Of a stretch of 64,000 nucleotides of DNA, positions 35,796 through 46,883 are shown one piece after another. Both the position numbers and the translations under genes were made by a program. The stretch comes from an uncultured Holophagales bacterium (lineage in GTDB: Bacteria > Acidobacteriota > Thermoanaerobaculia > Multivoradales > UBA5704). Each line of letters begins with the position of its first letter. Position 1 is the first letter of the stretch. A model generated the notes under the pieces. That model was given only the letters and a program-made list of their open reading frames with translations, was not told where the DNA came from and did no database searches. The stretch covers positions 1,696,001 to 1,760,000 of the forward strand of contig CAWJGT010000009.1 in the NCBI GenBank assembly GCA_963842525.1. Reading direction: 5' to 3'.

Positions 35796-40090
<4,295 letters not shown>

Positions 40091-40148: not shown

Positions 40149-41576
40149 TTACGGACGGCGGGCGGTCATCCGCGCCACGATCTCCAGGAACTGTGCGTCC
40201 TTCCGCAGCTCCGCGAAAGCCGGCTCCGCCTCCAGGGCCTTCGCATCAGAAAAGCCCTTGTCCACGGCCATGCTCAGGGATTCCAGTGCCTTCTTGTGGC
40301 CGGGCTTTCCCTTGAGGGCGTACAGGGTCGCGATTTCCACCCACGGGCCGGGATCTTCTGGACGGATTTCGGCTCCGACGGACAGCATGAAGATGGCGCG
40401 GTCGTACTGCTTTTTCGCGACGAGCGCCTGCGGCTGGTAAAACCGTAGCTGGCCCAGGTACATGTTGAGGACCCGCTTGGCGGCGAGGCTCTCCTCGGTA
40501 TCGGCGGCATGGGCCGACTCCATGCGCTTCTTGAGCTCCGGGATCTTGAGCGCGGCGGCGACCTGCGCCACGGTCACCGGCTCGTTGCCCGGACTGGTGC
40601 GCATCAGGATGCCGGGCGCGTTGGCGAGGATCTCCTTGTCCCGGCGGTCCCGGGCTTCGCGGTCGCGCAGCTCCTGCTGGCAGGCCGGCGAGGCGGCCAG
40701 GGCCGCCGCCTCGCGTTCGGCCTCCGACACATCCCGTAGACCGGCATAGTCGACGGCCATGGCCGACCAGGTGTGGAGGGCGTCCCCTGGATGGACCGCG
40801 GCCTGCGCCCGTGCCCGCTCGCGGTCCGCGGCCCATTCCGCCTCGATCAGCGCGGGGCTCTTCTCCCGCAGCCCCTTTTTCATCGCCTGAAGCTCCATCC
40901 AGCCGACCGCTCTGCTGGCGAGCTCCACCGGCGGCCAGTCATGCGTGCCGGCGAAGCCCTCGATGCGGTGCGGGACGGCGAGCGCCGCGAGCGCCTGATC
41001 GAGGTCCCGCATCTCGTAGTAGTTGAAATCGCGGTCGCCATACGTGCCGTAGAAGACGAAGGGGTTGTCCCGCTTGGGCTGCGATCCGATGGGGAAGCCG
41101 GCGCTGGCTCCGATGACCCCGGCGATCGACCCGGGCGCCGTGAGAGCCAGGACGCAGGCGAAGCGCACCGTGCCCGAGTAGCCTGCCGCGTACACGCGCC
41201 GGTCGTCGATCGAAAAGCGGGCATGGGTGTCCGCCCACAACGCCTTCATGGCCGCGAAGTTACCCTCCATCGGCCGGTCGCCCCCCACGTCGCTCGCCGT
41301 GCTCCAGGAGCTGACCACGATCCAGCCGTAGGTCTCGGCAGCCCGCTGAAACAGCTCAGCCACTCTCTTGCCGTCCCCGCGCGCGTCGAAGGCATAGAGG
41401 ACCGGCCACTGGCGCTCCGGGGTGTACGTGGAAGGAAGATAGAGGGCGTATGCCTGGTCCGGCTGTTTCTCGCAGACCACCCGCTCGATCACCGTCCCCC
41501 GTGGCAGCTCGGCCGCGGTGGCGCCGGACGCGAAGAGGTGGAGGAGGGCCAGGAGGAAGGTCAGGGTGCGGGGCAT
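40149..41576 (-). CDS. Secreted alpha/beta-hydrolase-fold protein with C-terminal TPR
   Basis: Signal peptide; YALYLPSTY, RVYAAGYSG, FAGTHDW; C-terminal TPR-end-like segment. Confidence 0.75.
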   Translation of the reverse strand: MPRTLTFLLALLHLFASGATAAELPRGTVIERVVCEKQPDQAYALYLPSTYTPERQWPVLYAFDARGDGKRVAELFQRAAETYGWIVVSSWSTASDVGGDRPMEGNFAAMKALWADTHARFSIDDRRVYAAGYSGTVRFACVLALTAPGSIAGVIGASAGFPIGSQPKRDNPFVFYGTYGDRDFNYYEMRDLDQALAALAVPHRIEGFAGTHDWPPVELASRAVGWMELQAMKKGLREKSPALIEAEWAADRERARAQAAVHPGDALHTWSAMAVDYAGLRDVSEAEREAAALAASPACQQELRDREARDRRDKEILANAPGILMRTSPGNEPVTVAQVAAALKIPELKKRMESAHAADTEESLAAKRVLNMYLGQLRFYQPQALVAKKQYDRAIFMLSVGAEIRPEDPGPWVEIATLYALKGKPGHKKALESLSMAVDKGFSDAKALEAEPAFAELRKDAQFLEIVARMTARRP

Positions 41577-41714
41577 CGGAGCATGATAGCGGGTGGTCGC
41601 CTGACAGTGGAACAGCGTGAGCTGTTCTCGCCTTGCAAGACGGCTCGACTCCTTGCGAGGGGCCTTCCGCTCCTTGCTAGAATTCACCCGAGGAGGATGC
41701 GATGGAAACCGCTG

Positions 41715-43040
41715 TTACCAAGAAAGGCCAGACGAATATTCCGGCGGCGATCCGCAAGCGGTATCAAGATCCTCTTTCGCGCGCCCCGCCTCCAGCCAGA
41801 GCACCGCCAAGTCCAAGCCCGAAAGGGCTGCGTCGTAGGGCAGCTCCTCGGCGGTGAAGACCCGTTGCACCTGCTCCAGCCGCTCCATGGCTTCCCGCTT
41901 CTGCCCCAACCCGGCCAGGGTCTTCGCTTCCAGCCGGTCGAGGCGGGTGAGGTCCAGCGCGTTGCGCTGCTGTTCCGCGAGCTCGCGTACCTTCGGCAGC
42001 AGCTCTGCCGCTTCCGCGTAGCGTTCCATGTAACAGAAGTTTCTCGCAGTCTTAAACCGCAGCGAAAGAAGCAGGTGCGGATCGCACGACGCTTCAACAG
42101 GAGCTTCAGCTTCATCCAAGACGGCCAGCGCAGCTTCAAATTCCCCCATCTGATCGAAGACGCGCTCTTTTTCAAGCAGGATCATAGCGGCCGCCGATCT
42201 GTCGTCGCCACGGCTCGCAAAAGCCTGGTCGAAGAGGACCAAGGCTTTTGAAAACTGCCGTTGCTCCCGCCGCAGGGCAGCTTCAAAAAGGTGCAACCCC
42301 CATTCGGGGAGCAACCCTTCGGGGTCGGTTCCGGACTTCCAGAGGTCCCTGGCCATGGTGAAGGCCTGATCGGCCCCCTCGAAGTCATTCGCGACGCGGC
42401 GTGCGTTGCCGATGTGAAGCCAGCAAAAGCCTAGGAGCCGGCGTTGGAAGCTTCCCTCCTCTGCCACCCGCTCGGCGATGAAGAGGGCCAGATCCGCGAG
42501 ATCTAGCGCCTCGTCGGTCTTGTGGGCGGCCGCCCGCACGCTTGCCGTGCACACCCGCACGGCCAACGCCCAGCTCCGCGAAGCCCGCAGTGCAAATCCG
42601 AGCAACCGACGCCGCTTGCGCATCGGCAAGGGATCCAGCGCCGCCCAGACCTCCTCGGCTTCCCGCAACGCCACTATAGAAGACTTGCGGCCCGGTGCCG
42701 CAACTCCCTCTTCGATCCCATCAGAGGCTACCGAAAGCTGCGCGATGTCGAGGGTCACCTGCGCAGGATCCGCGGCGGCAACTCTGTGGCGAGCGGCGGA
42801 AATCAGCGCAGTGTAGAAGCGCCGGACGTGCACAACCAGGGACCACTCAAGGCCCGCGGTCCTCGCCATCCGCCGGAGGGCAGCTTCCGGCGGAGCCTTC
42901 TTGCCTGCCTCATAGTCCGAGAGGTCGCTCTGCGACACCCCGGCCTTCTCCCCGAAATCGTTCTGCGACTTCCTGCCGGCGTGGAAGCGCAGGAAACGGA
43001 CCACATACTTCAGAACCTCGGGATCACCCCTCTTCGCCAT
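41715..43040 (-). CDS. XRE-family HTH + TPR regulator (RRNPP-like architecture)
   Basis: HTH SQNDFGEKAGVSQSDLSDYEAGKKAP; successive TPR-like helices (HIGNARRVANDFEGADQAF, RQFSKALVLFDQA, MGEFEAALAVLDEA); C-terminus may be deleted. Confidence 0.8.
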   Translation of the reverse strand: MAKRGDPEVLKYVVRFLRFHAGRKSQNDFGEKAGVSQSDLSDYEAGKKAPPEAALRRMARTAGLEWSLVVHVRRFYTALISAARHRVAAADPAQVTLDIAQLSVASDGIEEGVAAPGRKSSIVALREAEEVWAALDPLPMRKRRRLLGFALRASRSWALAVRVCTASVRAAAHKTDEALDLADLALFIAERVAEEGSFQRRLLGFCWLHIGNARRVANDFEGADQAFTMARDLWKSGTDPEGLLPEWGLHLFEAALRREQRQFSKALVLFDQAFASRGDDRSAAAMILLEKERVFDQMGEFEAALAVLDEAEAPVEASCDPHLLLSLRFKTARNFCYMERYAEAAELLPKVRELAEQQRNALDLTRLDRLEAKTLAGLGQKREAMERLEQVQRVFTAEELPYDAALSGLDLAVLWLEAGRAKEDLDTACGSPPEYSSGLSW

Positions 43041-43153
43041 GCCTCTCACCCCTCTGTGCTGGACATGAGCTATGGTCGTTTGGTGCACTTTTGTCCAAAG
43101 AGGCGCCCGCACGGCCATGGGGGCCGCGCCGGAGCGCTCTCCCGGGAGCCATC

Positions 43154-43414
43154 ATGCTCAGCACCTCTCTGCGTCGCAAGGTCATCCTTCTCCTGTTAGT
43201 CGCGGTCCTTGCCGTTCCCTGGGCTGCTCTGGCCGGGCCACCGACCGGGCACCTTCGGGCGGTGGAAGCCAACGTCCCCGTACACCCCGATTTCTTCGGC
43301 GGGCTCTGGAGTTGGCTCACGAGGCTGTGGAGCGAAACGGGCTGCAGCATCGACCCGCTCGGCCACTGCATCCCCGGCACTAGAATAGGACGCGCCAAGA
43401 CCCGCTTCCAATGA
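43154..43414 (+). CDS. Small secreted peptide with Trp-rich helix and GCSIDPLGHC motif
   Basis: RBS GGGAG; signal MLSTSLRRKVILLLLVAVLAVPWAALA; FFGGLWSWLTRLWSETGCSIDPLGHC; ATGA overlap with the kinase. Confidence 0.7.
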   Translation: MLSTSLRRKVILLLLVAVLAVPWAALAGPPTGHLRAVEANVPVHPDFFGGLWSWLTRLWSETGCSIDPLGHCIPGTRIGRAKTRFQ

Positions 43415-46130
43415 CCGATCAAGAACGCTCCTCCCCTGGCAAGGACCGGCCGGCTTATCTCGGCGCCTACCGGTTGGAGCGCCCGCTGGGGCAGGGTGGA
43501 ATGGGGGAGGTGTTCCTTGCTTGGGACGACCGGCTGGGACGGCGGGTGGCGATCAAACGGCTCCGTCCTGGCTCCGGGGATCCGGAGGGACGGGAGCGAC
43601 TCCGCCGCGAGGCCCGCGCAGCGGCGGGCGTCTCCCATCCGGCCCTGGTGCAGGTCTACGACGTCGTCCTCGATCCGGCGGGCGATGCGGTGGTCCTCGA
43701 GTATGTCGAGGGGCGGACCTTCGCCGAGCTGCTGGCCGGCGGGACCTGCCCACCGGGGCTTGCTGTCCGCCTGGGGAGGGAGATCGCCGAGGGCCTCGCG
43801 GCCGCCCACGCGGCCGGCCTGGTCCACCGCGACCTCAAGGCCGAGAATGTGATCCTCACCCCTTCCAGCCACGCCAAGGTCCTCGACTTCGGCCTTGCCC
43901 GCCCGGTGGGGCCGGAGGCGCAGCGGCTCACCGATCACGGGATGCTCCTCGGGACCTATCACGCCATGTCGCCCGAGCAGGCCCGCGGCGCCGAGCTGGA
44001 CGGGCGCTCCGATCTCTTCTCGCTGGGCGTCCTGCTCTACGAGCTTCTGACCGGCCGCTCGCCGTTCCGGGGCAGCGACCCCGTGGATACCCTGCAGCGG
44101 GTGACCTCGGCCGAGCCGATCCCGCTTGCGCAGCTACGGCCGGACCTCCCCCCTGAGATCGGTGCGCTCGTCAGCCGCCTCCTCGCCAAGGACCCTGGAG
44201 CACGGCCGGCGAATGCGGGCATTGTTGCGCGCGAGCTTGCGGCGATCAGCGAGCTTCCTGCCCTTGCCGGCTGTGGCGATGAGGCGTGGGGTGGAGGCCT
44301 GTGGAGCGACCTGCCGACGGCTGGGCCTGGACCGGGATTGCCGGCGATGTCTGCGATGGGGGCGACGCCGGCGACCGCCCCAGCCCTTGCCCCTGCCGCG
44401 GGTCCCAGGATCTCCGGAAGCTCGTTCGCACCGCCGCGCTTCCGTCTTCGCCGGCCGGCTGTCTGGGTGGCGATGGTCCTCGTGGGGCTCGGCCTCCTGG
44501 GCAGCCTCGCCCTGCACTATCGCGCCCGGCCGCCGCGGCGCGTGGTGGTGCTGCGGCCGGTCGTGACTTCCGGATCTCCAGAGACCCCGGAAATCACCGA
44601 ACGGCTGTCCCTCGCTGCCTCCGGGGTCCTCGTCGCCAGCCTGGCCGGGCTCACGTCGTTTGAGGGCCTGGCTCCTCTCGATCCGTCCCAGGCTGGAACG
44701 GCTGGAGACGCCGCCGGCTCGCTGGCCGGCGCGGCGCGGGCGGCAGCGGCGGACGAGGTGCTCTCGGCGACTCTCGAACGAACGGAAGGCGAGCTTGCCC
44801 GCCTCACTCTCCGCCGGGTTGCCGCGGATGGGCAAGTCTTGTGGGCCGAAGGCTTCGAGATCCCCACGGCGCCGGCCGATCTCCACCTGCTGGCCGACGC
44901 CGTCTACGTCCATCTCCGGAGGGCCTGGCCGCAAGCGCGACGGCGCGACGGCACTCCCGACCTCGACGCGCGCGACGAGGACTACGCGGCCTTCCTCGAT
45001 ATCCGCCGCCGGATCGATTCGGGTCGGTCGCCGCTGGCGCCGGAGCTCGTCCGCCTGGAGGAGATCCTTCGCCGCTCGCCGCGCTTCCTCGAAGCCCAGC
45101 TCCAGGCGGCGCGCTGCGCTGAAAGCCTCTATCAATCGAAGCGCGATCCCGATTTCCTGGTCCGTGGCAACCGCTTCGTGGCCGCGGCGCGGGAGATTGC
45201 TCCCAACGATCCCCGGCCGCTCGCCGAGCTTTTCCGCCTCTCCGTCGCCTCCGGCCAGACAGCAGAGGCTCGAGAAGGCCCTGGCGGAGCTTGCGCGGCT
45301 CCAGCCGGCAGACCCCGAGCTTGCGGTCCTGCGTGCGAGCCTCGCCGAGAGCCGCGGCCGGACGGACGACGCGCTCGCCGAGCTGCGCGCCGCGGTGACC
45401 CAGGTGCCGTCCTGGAGGAACCTCTATCGTCTGGCCGACCTCGCCGCCCGGAGCGGGCGCGTTGCCGAGGCACGCGGGCATTTCCAGGCGCTCCTCGCCC
45501 GCTCGCCCGGCAATCTCTGGGCGCGCGAGAAGCTTGCCGAGATGGAGCTGCTCTACGGCGATCTGCCCCGCGCCGAGCAGCTTTACTCGGACCTCCTCGC
45601 CACCTCGGACCAGCGTAGCTACTGGACCAACCTCGGCCTCACCCGATTCCTCCTTGGCCGGCCGGCGGCGGCGGTCGAGGCCTATCGCAAGGCGCTCGGC
45701 TTCGATCCCGAGCACGTCTACGTCCGCTTGAACCTGGCCGATGCCCTTCTCGCCCTGGGCCGGGAAGGGGAGGCGAAGGACCTCTATGCCCGGGTCCTCG
45801 GCGCGCTGGAGGCGAACCGGAAGGCGGCGCCTCCGAGCGCGGTCGACGAGATGACCCGCGCTCAGTGTCTGGTCCAGCTCGGCCGCGCCCGCGAGGCGGT
45901 CGAGCTCACCCAGCAGACGCTGCAGGCGAACCCCGGCGATCCTCAGGTGGTCTATCTGGCGTCGCTCGTCTACGCCCTGGCCGGCGACCGCGCCTCCGCG
46001 CTCGTCAACGCCGAAGCCGCGCTCGACAAGGGCGTCCAGCCGCGCTGGTTCCGGCTCGCCGCCTTTGCTCCGCTCGCGGGCGACTCCGAGCTTCTCGGCG
46101 CGGCTCGCCGGCCACGATCAACGGCACTAA
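43411..46130 (+). CDS. Ser/Thr protein kinase with TM and TPR domains; frameshift near 45270, end approximate
   Basis: LGQGGMGEV, VAIK, HRDLKAEN, DFG, MSPEQ, DLFSLG; TM; TPRs continue in the 44660..46267 frame. Confidence 0.88.
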
Positions 46131-46136
46131 CCCGCC

Positions 46137-46883
46137 CTAACCAGGAGGGCCACCGTTGTCGATCACCGGGTCGCCGGTCGCCAGCGTCTCGCCGCCCGCG
46201 CCCACGAGCCTCATGTGGTAGGTGTACTTGCCTAGCGGGGCCCGCCACTGGCCCGCTCCGACGATGAACTGGCTCGCCCCGGAGTCGCTGCCCGCAGAGC
46301 GCAGGCTGGTGAGGCTCTGGAAGGGGCCGATCAGCGGGTGCCGGGCACCCTGCGGGCCTTCGGAAACGTACAGGTAGACCGACCCTTCGGGTGGAAGATC
46401 ATAGAAGGTCCAGAACGGAGAGTCGCCGTCGTTCAGCCGCAGGGTGAAGGGCTCGGCGATCAGGAGCCCTTGCTCCCCATCGTAGCGGACCCTCACCTCG
46501 GGGGTGGTGTCGACGCGGGTGGCGTGGTTGTCGAGCGTGGCAGCCGAGCGGGTGGAGACGGTCTGCGGGGCCTCCTGCGAGCCGAAAACGAGCGCGGCAT
46601 GGTAGGTGTGAACGCCACCATGCTCTGGACCGGCATTGCCCTTGCCCACCAGGGTGAGGAGGTCCGGGGAGGTCTGCAGGACGTGGAAGGGGCCGAGTCG
46701 GCGGTCGAAGCGCAGGGCCGGGACGGCTTGGAGATCCGCGGGAACGTCGAGGAACTTCCAGACCACCCGTTGATCGTCCTGCAGCTCGAAGCCGGGCGGG
46801 TCGATGACCAGAAACGGTCCTTCGGCATCCTCCTGATAGGAGACCTCGACGACGAGCTTCTGAGGCATTTCCTGATTTGTCAT
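46137..46883 (-). CDS. Hypothetical protein with two tandem beta-sandwich (DP-EP-like) domains
   Basis: Two similar halves (VEVSY..DQRVVWKF..GPF..HTYH and VRVRY..DSPFWTF..GPF..YTYH) ending DPVIDNGGPP. Confidence 0.55.
   Translation of the reverse strand: MTNQEMPQKLVVEVSYQEDAEGPFLVIDPPGFELQDDQRVVWKFLDVPADLQAVPALRFDRRLGPFHVLQTSPDLLTLVGKGNAGPEHGGVHTYHAALVFGSQEAPQTVSTRSAATLDNHATRVDTTPEVRVRYDGEQGLLIAEPFTLRLNDGDSPFWTFYDLPPEGSVYLYVSEGPQGARHPLIGPFQSLTSLRSAGSDSGASQFIVGAGQWRAPLGKYTYHMRLVGAGGETLATGDPVIDNGGPPG

Follow-up and report, generated by a model that had tools for sequence, protein, structure and literature searches.

Peptide signalling through cytoplasmic tetratricopeptide repeat (TPR) receptors is treated as a trait of Bacillota and of phages. 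In RRNPP(A) systems of the helix-turn-helix (HTH) plus TPR type, which include NprR-NprX and PlcR-PapR and more distantly Rgg-SHP, PrgX, AimR-AimP and Rap-Phr, a cytoplasmic receptor composed of an N-terminal XRE HTH and a C-terminal TPR superhelix lies adjacent to a small gene for an exported propeptide, whose conserved motif is located at or near the C-terminus, and many paralogous cassettes occur per genome. The locus analysed here shares this anatomy and lies in a stretch of 64,000 nucleotides (the window) from the genome of an uncultured Holophagales bacterium, a member of the Acidobacteriota and hence a diderm by phylum. A gene coding for an XRE-type HTH followed by TPRs is separated by 113 bp (43041-43153) from a divergent open reading frame (ORF) of 86 aa, an arrangement described in an earlier note on this DNA as a candidate RRNPP-like signalling pair and confirmed in the sequence.

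As judged from its sequence, the pair is one copy of a large lineage-specific cassette of the Thermoanaerobaculia (Acidobacteriota), a copy that has been remodelled and is possibly decaying. The cassette occurs in two arrangements. In class A, the peptide gene stands antisense between two XRE-HTH+TPR genes, one divergent and upstream, the other convergent and downstream, and the peptide carries Cys-flanked cores. In class B, the next gene downstream of the peptide, in the same orientation, encodes a TPR protein whose N-terminus carries H-x3-C-x2-C in place of the HTH. The canonical unit therefore has two receptors, or a receptor of non-HTH type, and not the single receptor that the earlier note had described.

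Several properties set the cassette apart from RRNPP(A) systems. Those systems belong to Bacillota and mobile elements, whereas the nearest named records of this cassette are metagenome-assembled genomes (MAGs) of Thermoanaerobaculia, and the sequence homology of its TPR domain to RRNPP receptors is not significant. The peptides form a new family, with a Trp helix and D-P-x-G cores that are Cys-flanked in class A. Two receptors with different HTHs and a shared type of sensor flank an antisense peptide gene, the HxxxCxxC domain replaces the HTH in class B, and the messenger RNA (mRNA) has a conserved structured leader. Since homology of the receptors to RRNPP proteins is not established, the cassette may work like RRNPP systems and is not filed here as a member of them. 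Tandem candidate mature peptides in one propeptide are a further feature in common, tandem pheromone copies being described for RRNPPA systems in two studies (PMC9765709, PMC11343458).

The cassette family in its own genome and beyond

The receptor of the window lies within a full ORF of 467 aa (41715-43118, minus strand), and alignment with paralogs places its start at the ATG at 43038-43040 (MAKRGD). The pair comprises the following features.

41715 to 43040, minus strand: receptor gene of 441 aa, with an XRE-type HTH, a linker and about 8 TPR-like repeats (ORF, Pfam, paralog alignment)
42849 to 42992, minus strand: HTH_31 / HTH_3 DNA-binding domain (Pfam, residues 43-90 of the 467-aa ORF)
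41775 to 42554, minus strand: TPR sensor domain of the receptor (TPR_MalT-like match, residues 189-448)
43154 to 43414, plus strand: propeptide gene of 86 aa (ORF, family alignment; no Pfam or NCBIfam family)
43340 to 43369, plus strand: core motif GCSIDPLGHC, residues 63-72, candidate mature peptide or disulfide loop (direct sequence reading)

The Pfam matches of the receptor to HTH_31 (E 1e-7) and HTH_3 (1.8e-6) lie above cut-off, and those to TPR_MalT (2.3e-6) and TPR_12 (9.8e-6) lie under their cut-offs. The leader of the peptide (residues 1-27) has SLRRK as its basic n-region, an h-region rich in Leu and, preceding G28, the residues A-L-A; it appears Sec-like when the -3/-1 rule is applied by eye. 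A variable spacer leads to an amphipathic LWxxLxxxW helix (FFGGLWSWLTRLWSE, residues 47-61) and then to a single Cys-flanked core with an aberrant tail, the second core of its relatives being absent. A Tat (twin-arginine) leader, considered on account of the RRK following S/T, was rejected, since the family as a whole does not keep the RR pair and the h-region is highly hydrophobic. The Sec signal, the Trp helix and the GCSIDPLGHC motif listed in the earlier note are each present in the 86-aa ORF. Searches of the peptide against Pfam and NCBIfam returned nothing meaningful, and it matches the model of its own family with an E-value of 3.2e-21.

That family was assembled in the genome to which the window belongs (9.95 Mb, 34 contigs). 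The window peptide used as query found 21 places at E < 1e-3, and a hidden Markov model (HMM) iterated over all stop-to-stop ORFs yielded 23, then 42 and then 52 peptide ORFs. They follow one plan, in which a leader and a variable spacer precede an amphipathic [LF]WxxLxxxW helix, itself followed by 1-4 tandem cores of the form [DE]-x-G-[C/S/H/M]-x-[I/L]-D-P-x-G. Conservation of the GCxxDPxG motif was borne out, D, P and G being near-invariant across the family; the LWxxLxxxW helix is conserved as well as the core, with W52 and W59 invariant in class A. The cores of one peptide group are Cys-flanked, and those of the other lack Cys, the ORF often closing directly with ..DPNG or ..DPNGRP. Paralogs of the receptor occupy about 100 places in the same genome, where the HMM of the receptor family matches 142 ORFs, 74 of them near full length.

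Peptide and receptor genes are tightly linked. A receptor-HMM match was found within 1.5 kb of 47 of the 51 peptides with an assignable start, against 2.1 expected by chance, given that 4.2% of the genome lies within that distance of a receptor match. Among 29 full-length receptors that seemed orphans, 9 were flagged, and about 8 of these are credible cases of an adjacent diverged ORF missed by the HMM (leader, W-helix and DPxG). The ORFs that recur within 5 kb of the peptides are the receptor family, alternate-frame ORFs lying over receptors and the peptide itself; because other clusters recur at no more than 7 loci, no protease, modifying-enzyme, transporter or immunity gene is a conserved companion in these flanks.

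A tandem array of five HxxxCxxC+TPR paralogs without an HMM-detected peptide was also observed (G000, C9:424157-434063), with diverged small ORFs carrying a leader, a W-helix and C-I-D-P-x-G between some of the paralogs. Many receptor paralogs are split into 2-5 consecutive ORF pieces or contain in-frame stops (for example at C1:43274-46984, C19:68953-70021 and C25:403539-406275).

Outside this genome, the peptide model matches all 24 other genomes of the same family (5 to 61 matches each) and 8 of 16 genomes from other families of the same order. In a sample of 301 genomes drawn evenly from the phylum (E <= 1e-5, 16 candidates per genome scored), two matched, namely the genome of the window and one of the same family. 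To judge by these matches, the peptide cassette appears confined to one order of the sampled phylum. The association with receptors holds here too: 28 of the 29 best loci of other genomes have a receptor within the 1.5-kb flank, the remaining one being located on a short contig, and a receptor flanks the peptide at all five further loci of genome G013. The best loci of five genomes outside the family of the window are all class B. A search with the receptor protein found the receptor-peptide-receptor unit in two named records, a 'Thermoanaerobaculia bacterium' MAG and a 'Thermoanaerobaculum sp.' MAG. The adjacency that the earlier note proposed to test is thus consistently seen within the genome, at the best loci elsewhere and in both named MAGs, and its suggestion that GCxxDPxG peptides recur beside such regulators in Thermoanaerobaculia proved right. 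Among 1.84 billion public protein cluster representatives, the peptide profile matched 3,914 at E <= 1e-3 and 1,078 at E <= 1e-10. In a search of read sets for RNA evidence, no RNA run was listed, and only three soil-metagenome DNA runs, all from one study, were found, the best containing 0.21 of the words.

The search of public metagenomes also revealed large secreted proteins of 669-783 aa (P0006, P0009, P0065) with about 30-40 nonapeptide repeats x-x-x-[I/L/V/M]-D-P-N-G-[R/K] and with C-terminal DEWDxEVVKR repeats, and locus L096 (G025:C7) grouped with them. No such long DPNG-repeat protein was found in the family of the window, and one of 41 genomes matched, in a sister family. These proteins suggest that the DPNG unit also has a structural or polyprotein use.

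The cassette is undescribed in the sense that searches of Pfam, NCBIfam and Rfam yielded no family for it, and those of the literature no paper. None of the papers returned connects RRNPP or peptide pheromones with Acidobacteria or Thermoanaerobaculia, and for DPNG or IDPNG our literature search returned only invertase motifs and the like. The main text of two RRNPP surveys (PMC9765709, PMC10075063) mentions no Gram-negative or acidobacterial case, and their supplements could list candidates from outside the Bacillota.

Paired receptors, locus-specific cores and the mRNA leader

No hydrophobic 19-mer typical of a transmembrane helix was found in the receptors, which are hence predicted to be cytoplasmic and soluble. 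The AlphaFold2 model of the window receptor is all-helical (pLDDT 87.4) and confident as far as residue 420, with the HTH, a helical linker and a TPR superhelix of about 8 hairpins, and a profile of 28 receptor homologs matches solved HTHs of the XRE family (HipB, 434 repressor, SinR). Within class A, the window receptor corresponds to REC_up, the upstream, divergent receptor.

The two receptors of a locus differ in their heads and resemble each other in their sensors. At the 8 loci where both receptors are complete, TPR domains are 52-95% identical within a locus (median 67%), compared with 41-42% between loci. HTH domains, conversely, are 16-31% identical within a locus (median 24%), compared with 30% among upstream and 29% among downstream receptors of different loci. 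In a FastTree phylogeny of 70 receptors, those of one locus or module lineage group together, and the class A receptors make up a single group lying among class B and orphan proteins. Similar TPRs joined to dissimilar HTHs point to two outputs served by one locus-specific sensor. The cores show a parallel pattern. Among 69 precursors with at least two cores (172 cores in all), cores of one precursor agree at 64% of the 7 positions other than D, P and G, compared with 36% between precursors, a value reached by none of 1000 shuffles; for the residue after Cys, agreement is 42% within and 9% between precursors.

Two receptors for one type of peptide are known from Rgg2/Rgg3-SHP of Streptococcus pyogenes, where two paralogous cytoplasmic regulators likewise answer one kind of secreted peptide and receptor-peptide pairs are divergent. 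Here, by contrast, both receptors flank a single peptide gene, the sensor is similar within a locus and the HTHs differ. One might guess that the two receptors have opposite regulatory signs.

The class B partners share the H-x3-C-x2-C start, within a helical domain of about 50 residues, with the ZAS anti-sigma factors (zf-HC2). Against this likeness, zf-HC2 matches 2 of 10 class B N-termini, with E-values of 0.07-0.17 that lie under the cut-off, and the window receptor is not of the HxxxCxxC class. An extracytoplasmic function (ECF) sigma factor was considered as class B partner and dismissed, not being adjacent to the peptide-linked class B loci. ECF sigma genes (Sigma70_r2) were observed directly upstream of peptide-less TPR members at C34:43598-45431 and C34:46015-47867 (G000), the only such cases seen.

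Upstream of the peptide start, class A loci share a GGCAC(C/T)nTA box (TTTGGTGCACTTTT in the window), an imperfect 16-bp stem-loop and GAAAGGAG. The intergenic region of the window contains the following elements.

43079 to 43099, no strand: inverted repeat TTTGG-N11-CCAAA, arms 43079-43083 and 43095-43099
43100 to 43141, plus strand: leader stem-loop, imperfect, 16 bp, GAGGCGCCCGC-A-CGGCC / loop / GGCCG..CGG..GCGC..CUC (fold, pair counts)
43144 to 43148, plus strand: ribosome-binding site GGGAG, 5 nt before the ATG, GAAAGGAG in most paralogs (sequence, paralog alignment)

The inverted repeat, which the earlier note had singled out, does exist. Its arms are only 5 bp long, under the 6-nt minimum of our repeat scan, and the same 131 bases hold a longer inverted pair (TGGACA/TGTCCA) and several 6-bp palindromes. 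Because the nearest relatives (L086, L087 and L049) have not conserved the right arm, the repeat was given no weight. Its left part (TTTGGTnCACTTTT) is kept in these relatives and corresponds in the alignment to the GGCAC(C/T)nTA box found at other class A loci, which is by its sequence a possible promoter or operator element. The conserved elements of the region are therefore this promoter-proximal box and the leader stem-loop, which sits just upstream of the ribosome-binding site, and not the inverted repeat.

Pairing in the stem was assessed with the structure taken from the fold of the window. In a MAFFT alignment of 28 loci, 76.7% of cells pair, compared with 41-48% when the partners are slid, and the covariation score is 0.218 against 0.171 in shuffled alignments (1 of 500 shuffles reaches it). 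A covariance model built from this alignment matched 57 places, 50 of them distinct. In the alignment of these 50 loci, which was fitted to the model and so leans towards the structure by construction, 78.5% of cells pair (39-46% slid), double changes occur in 15 of the 16 pairs, and covariation is 0.333 against 0.163 (0 of 500 shuffles). The matches include class B leaders, so that stem-loop and box are conserved upstream of the peptides of both classes, and the leader of the window is the second-best match, with 77.3 bits. Taken by itself, the fold of the window leader is unexceptional (z -1.2), and RNAalifold recovered only the 3-bp tip of the stem from the MAFFT alignment, the longer stem emerging only when the structure was specified beforehand and the loci were aligned to a model. 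An RNA stem is favoured over a DNA palindrome by the frequent G-U pairs on the peptide-sense strand. Rfam gave no match on 42900-43500 at E-values up to 10, and neither a sigma-70 consensus site nor a terminator was found in scans of 42950-43450. A sigma-54 reading of the GGCAC box was discarded, its spacing to GC being one base short or variable by eye.

The window copy and its surroundings

The closest relative of the window copy is the module on contig C11 of the same genome, whose receptor is 58% and whose peptide is 49% identical. Comparison with it shows that the suspected deletion of the receptor C-terminus is real. Homology of the receptor stops at ..LEAGRAKE, and about 60 C-terminal residues carried by at least 20 homologs are absent in all frames. 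The peptide is shortened likewise: its homology stops at ..CIPGT, short of the spacer and the second core that its relatives have, and the missing part is again absent in all frames. The class A layout, with the peptide antisense between two HTH-TPR genes, is not found here, as the downstream receptor is missing and a Ser/Thr kinase gene takes its place. On these alignments, the window copy is a truncated class A derivative. The earlier note had overlooked that both sides of this copy are truncated and that it has been joined to a kinase operon.

43411 to 46267, plus strand: Ser/Thr protein kinase gene, its ATG overlapping the peptide stop (ATGA) (Pkinase 2.8e-43 for 43411-45618)

With this overlap, the peptide is predicted to be translationally coupled to this membrane Ser/Thr kinase. 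The kinase gene changes frame near 45250-45270; its TPR-rich continuation lies in the frame of ORF 44660-46267 (TPR families by Pfam), and the original frame runs on to 45618 with a junk-like tail rich in Arg and Pro. The break is either a real frameshift, making a pseudogene, or an assembly indel, and the same two explanations, widespread pseudogenisation or assembly indel errors, apply to the split receptor paralogs together with it. The kinase is not a conserved partner of the cassette, as a kinase gene lies within about 1 kb at only 2 of 52 loci (at 36 bp in the window and within about 1 kb on C31). When the 5 other genomes of the genus were searched with the receptor-peptide segment, none yielded a close ortholog, and the best match was the C11 copy of the genome itself, with 67% DNA identity. 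Neither of the two ORFs is interrupted, and the stem-loop of the leader and the ribosome-binding site are likewise preserved. The window copy may thus be either rewired or decaying, and is possibly non-functional.

On the 3' side of the receptor lie, on the minus strand, a gene for a 512-aa protein with a weak esterase match (40149-41687), which starts 27 bp after the stop of the truncated receptor, and a gene for a large protein with Reg_prop (two-component regulator propeller) repeats (37430-40090).

Signalling and its alternatives

The proposal that the propeptide and TPR proteins work in the manner of RRNPP signalling, as a matched pair of peptide and sensor, is an analogy to which we give a little less than an even chance. 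Under this proposal, the propeptide would be exported by Sec and cleaved outside the cytoplasm into 1-4 copies of a short peptide specific to the locus, with x-[I/L]-D-P-x-G as its framework, which in class A would be closed by a disulfide. The peptide would then be taken up again, with OppA-family binding proteins on hand, and bind the concave face of the TPR domain. Binding would switch the output, which may be the action of the HTH on the shared intergenic promoter, and probably on other targets too, or in class B that of the anti-sigma-like domain. Three OppA-family binding-protein genes in the genome permit re-import. Many class B ORFs stop right after ..DPNG and so place the motif at the free C-terminus, where the motif of PapR, Phr and AimP is also located. 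Indirectly, a matched pair is favoured by the likeness of the sensor domains within a locus, by the locus-specific cores and by the conserved hairpin of the mRNA leader. A complex prediction for the C11 receptor (residues 115-487) and the C11 peptide (29-100), both with alignments, scored 0.01, which speaks neither for nor against binding. An OppA-family gene was observed about 3.3 kb from a class B peptide (G000, C9:403765-404823, minus strand, and C9:408120-408416), possibly by coincidence.

The RRNPP-like reading of the earlier note is thus partly sustained: anatomy, adjacency and tandem C-terminal cores run parallel to RRNPP, whereas receptor homology is marginal and the fold match generic. 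The best structural match in VIA-align is the TPR domain of LGN (Z 22.8, root-mean-square deviation 4.7 Å over 302 residues, 12% identity), followed among others by a phage Rap with its pheromone (Z 20.4) and by NprR (Z 20.0 apo, 19.4 with NprX). LGN/Pins TPRs hold extended peptides in a concave channel; they are eukaryotic scaffolds that share the repeat fold only, and the match is functionally uninformative.

Several observations weigh against signalling of this kind. The anaphase-promoting complex/cyclosome, KLC1 and other unrelated TPR proteins match at Z 18-22, and since such solenoids score as high, the likeness of fold to Rap and NprR is generic. Sequence links to RRNPP are marginal (RapH, E 0.0026 over 88 residues; PlcR, E 0.016, HTH only). 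Gene conversion or recent internal duplication could explain the likeness of TPRs and of cores without selection for matching. An exported peptide ends in the periplasm of a diderm and must recross the inner membrane to reach a cytoplasmic sensor, and a disulfide loop would be reduced in the cytoplasm. Since the roughly 50 paralogs in a single cell all have the same D-P-x-G, only 3-5 residues would be left to confer specificity. Many of the 142 receptor-HMM matches are fragments, part of the family being pseudogenised or mis-assembled, and the window copy may be inert, as it is truncated at both ends and no close ortholog was found in the 5 other genomes of its genus.

The peptide could instead be an end product, i.e., a secreted effector of antimicrobial, adhesive, metal-binding or envelope function whose expression would be under the control of the adjacent HTH-TPR or TPR proteins, with the TPR domain sensing something else and never encountering the peptide. 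This we consider rather unlikely, even though it agrees with an exported peptide and cytoplasmic regulators. Cys-loop peptides with a D-P-x-G turn would suit a stable extracellular product, the invariance of D-P-x-G argues for a common structural role, and the xxxxDPNG[RK] unit looks structural where it forms 30-40 nonapeptide repeats in the secreted proteins P0006, P0009 and P0065. An effector does not, however, predict locus-specific TPRs with differing HTHs or locus-specific cores; about 50 separately regulated and near-identical products, each with its own sensor pair, are hard to explain, and genes for immunity, transport or maturation are not conserved nearby. Quite improbable, in our view, is a regulation coupled to secretion, in which the TPR domain would bind the unexported precursor through its Trp helix or leader and report the state of export or envelope rather than cell density. 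TPR chaperones of type III secretion bind their substrates, re-import in a diderm would no longer be needed, and the LWxxLxxxW helix equals the core in conservation; an anti-sigma-like output, as in class B, accords with the logic of envelope stress, and the peptide-less member C34:44031-45431 directly follows an ECF sigma gene. Such coupling leaves unexplained the tandem C-terminal cores and those ORFs that terminate precisely with DPNG. In appearance the leaders are of the ordinary, efficient Sec kind, and no ECF sigma gene stands next to the class B loci that carry a peptide. The leader-plus-repeated-core anatomy and the Cys-rich cores also recall a ribosomally synthesized and post-translationally modified peptide (RiPP), i.e., a multi-core precursor of an enzymatically modified natural product; this is hardly credible, as the N-terminus is a Sec-type leader and not a RiPP recognition leader, a modifying enzyme beside the precursor was not found as a feature of the loci within 5 kb, and neither such an enzyme nor a protease or exporter gene recurs beside the peptide genes.

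A further alternative concerns the window copy only, which may be the non-functional remnant of a duplicate of a C11-like module. The 3' ends of both genes and the second receptor would have been lost by rearrangements of the flanks, and the open frames would be chance survivors. The abrupt ends of homology at ..GRAKE and ..CIPGT, the missing second receptor, the frame-shifted kinase next to it and the lack of a close ortholog in 5 same-genus genomes all fit this explanation. Nevertheless, the two ORFs run uninterrupted through 441 and 86 codons, confidence in the receptor model extends to residue 420, stem-loop, box and ribosome-binding site are kept together with the second-best leader match, and a working operon is suggested by the overlap (ATGA) of the peptide stop with the start of the kinase gene. 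On balance we find a mere remnant unlikely, if by no great distance.

Returning to the signalling proposal, its broadest form is that each Thermoanaerobaculia cell runs dozens of private peptide channels. Each of these would consist of a multi-copy, locus-specific D-P-x-G peptide and a locus-matched TPR sensor, joined either to two DNA-binding heads or to an anti-sigma-like head through which peptides would control sigma factors, with the structured mRNA leader as a second layer of control. This would be the first family of peptide signalling through cytoplasmic receptors in a diderm phylum. We put this broader picture forward tentatively, as open to considerable doubt.

For annotation, the cassette illustrates that small peptide genes are easily missed, and its copy in the window shows cassette decay and rewiring. 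If the signalling proposal is true, thousands of cassettes in a soil lineage that is abundant and has hardly been cultured would alter our picture of the distribution of peptide communication and would provide a natural library of orthogonal peptide-sensor pairs, and they raise the question of how a diderm brings its signal back in. If the peptide is not the ligand, the cassette still calls for a function and, among the unannotated gene families of this class, remains one of the largest.

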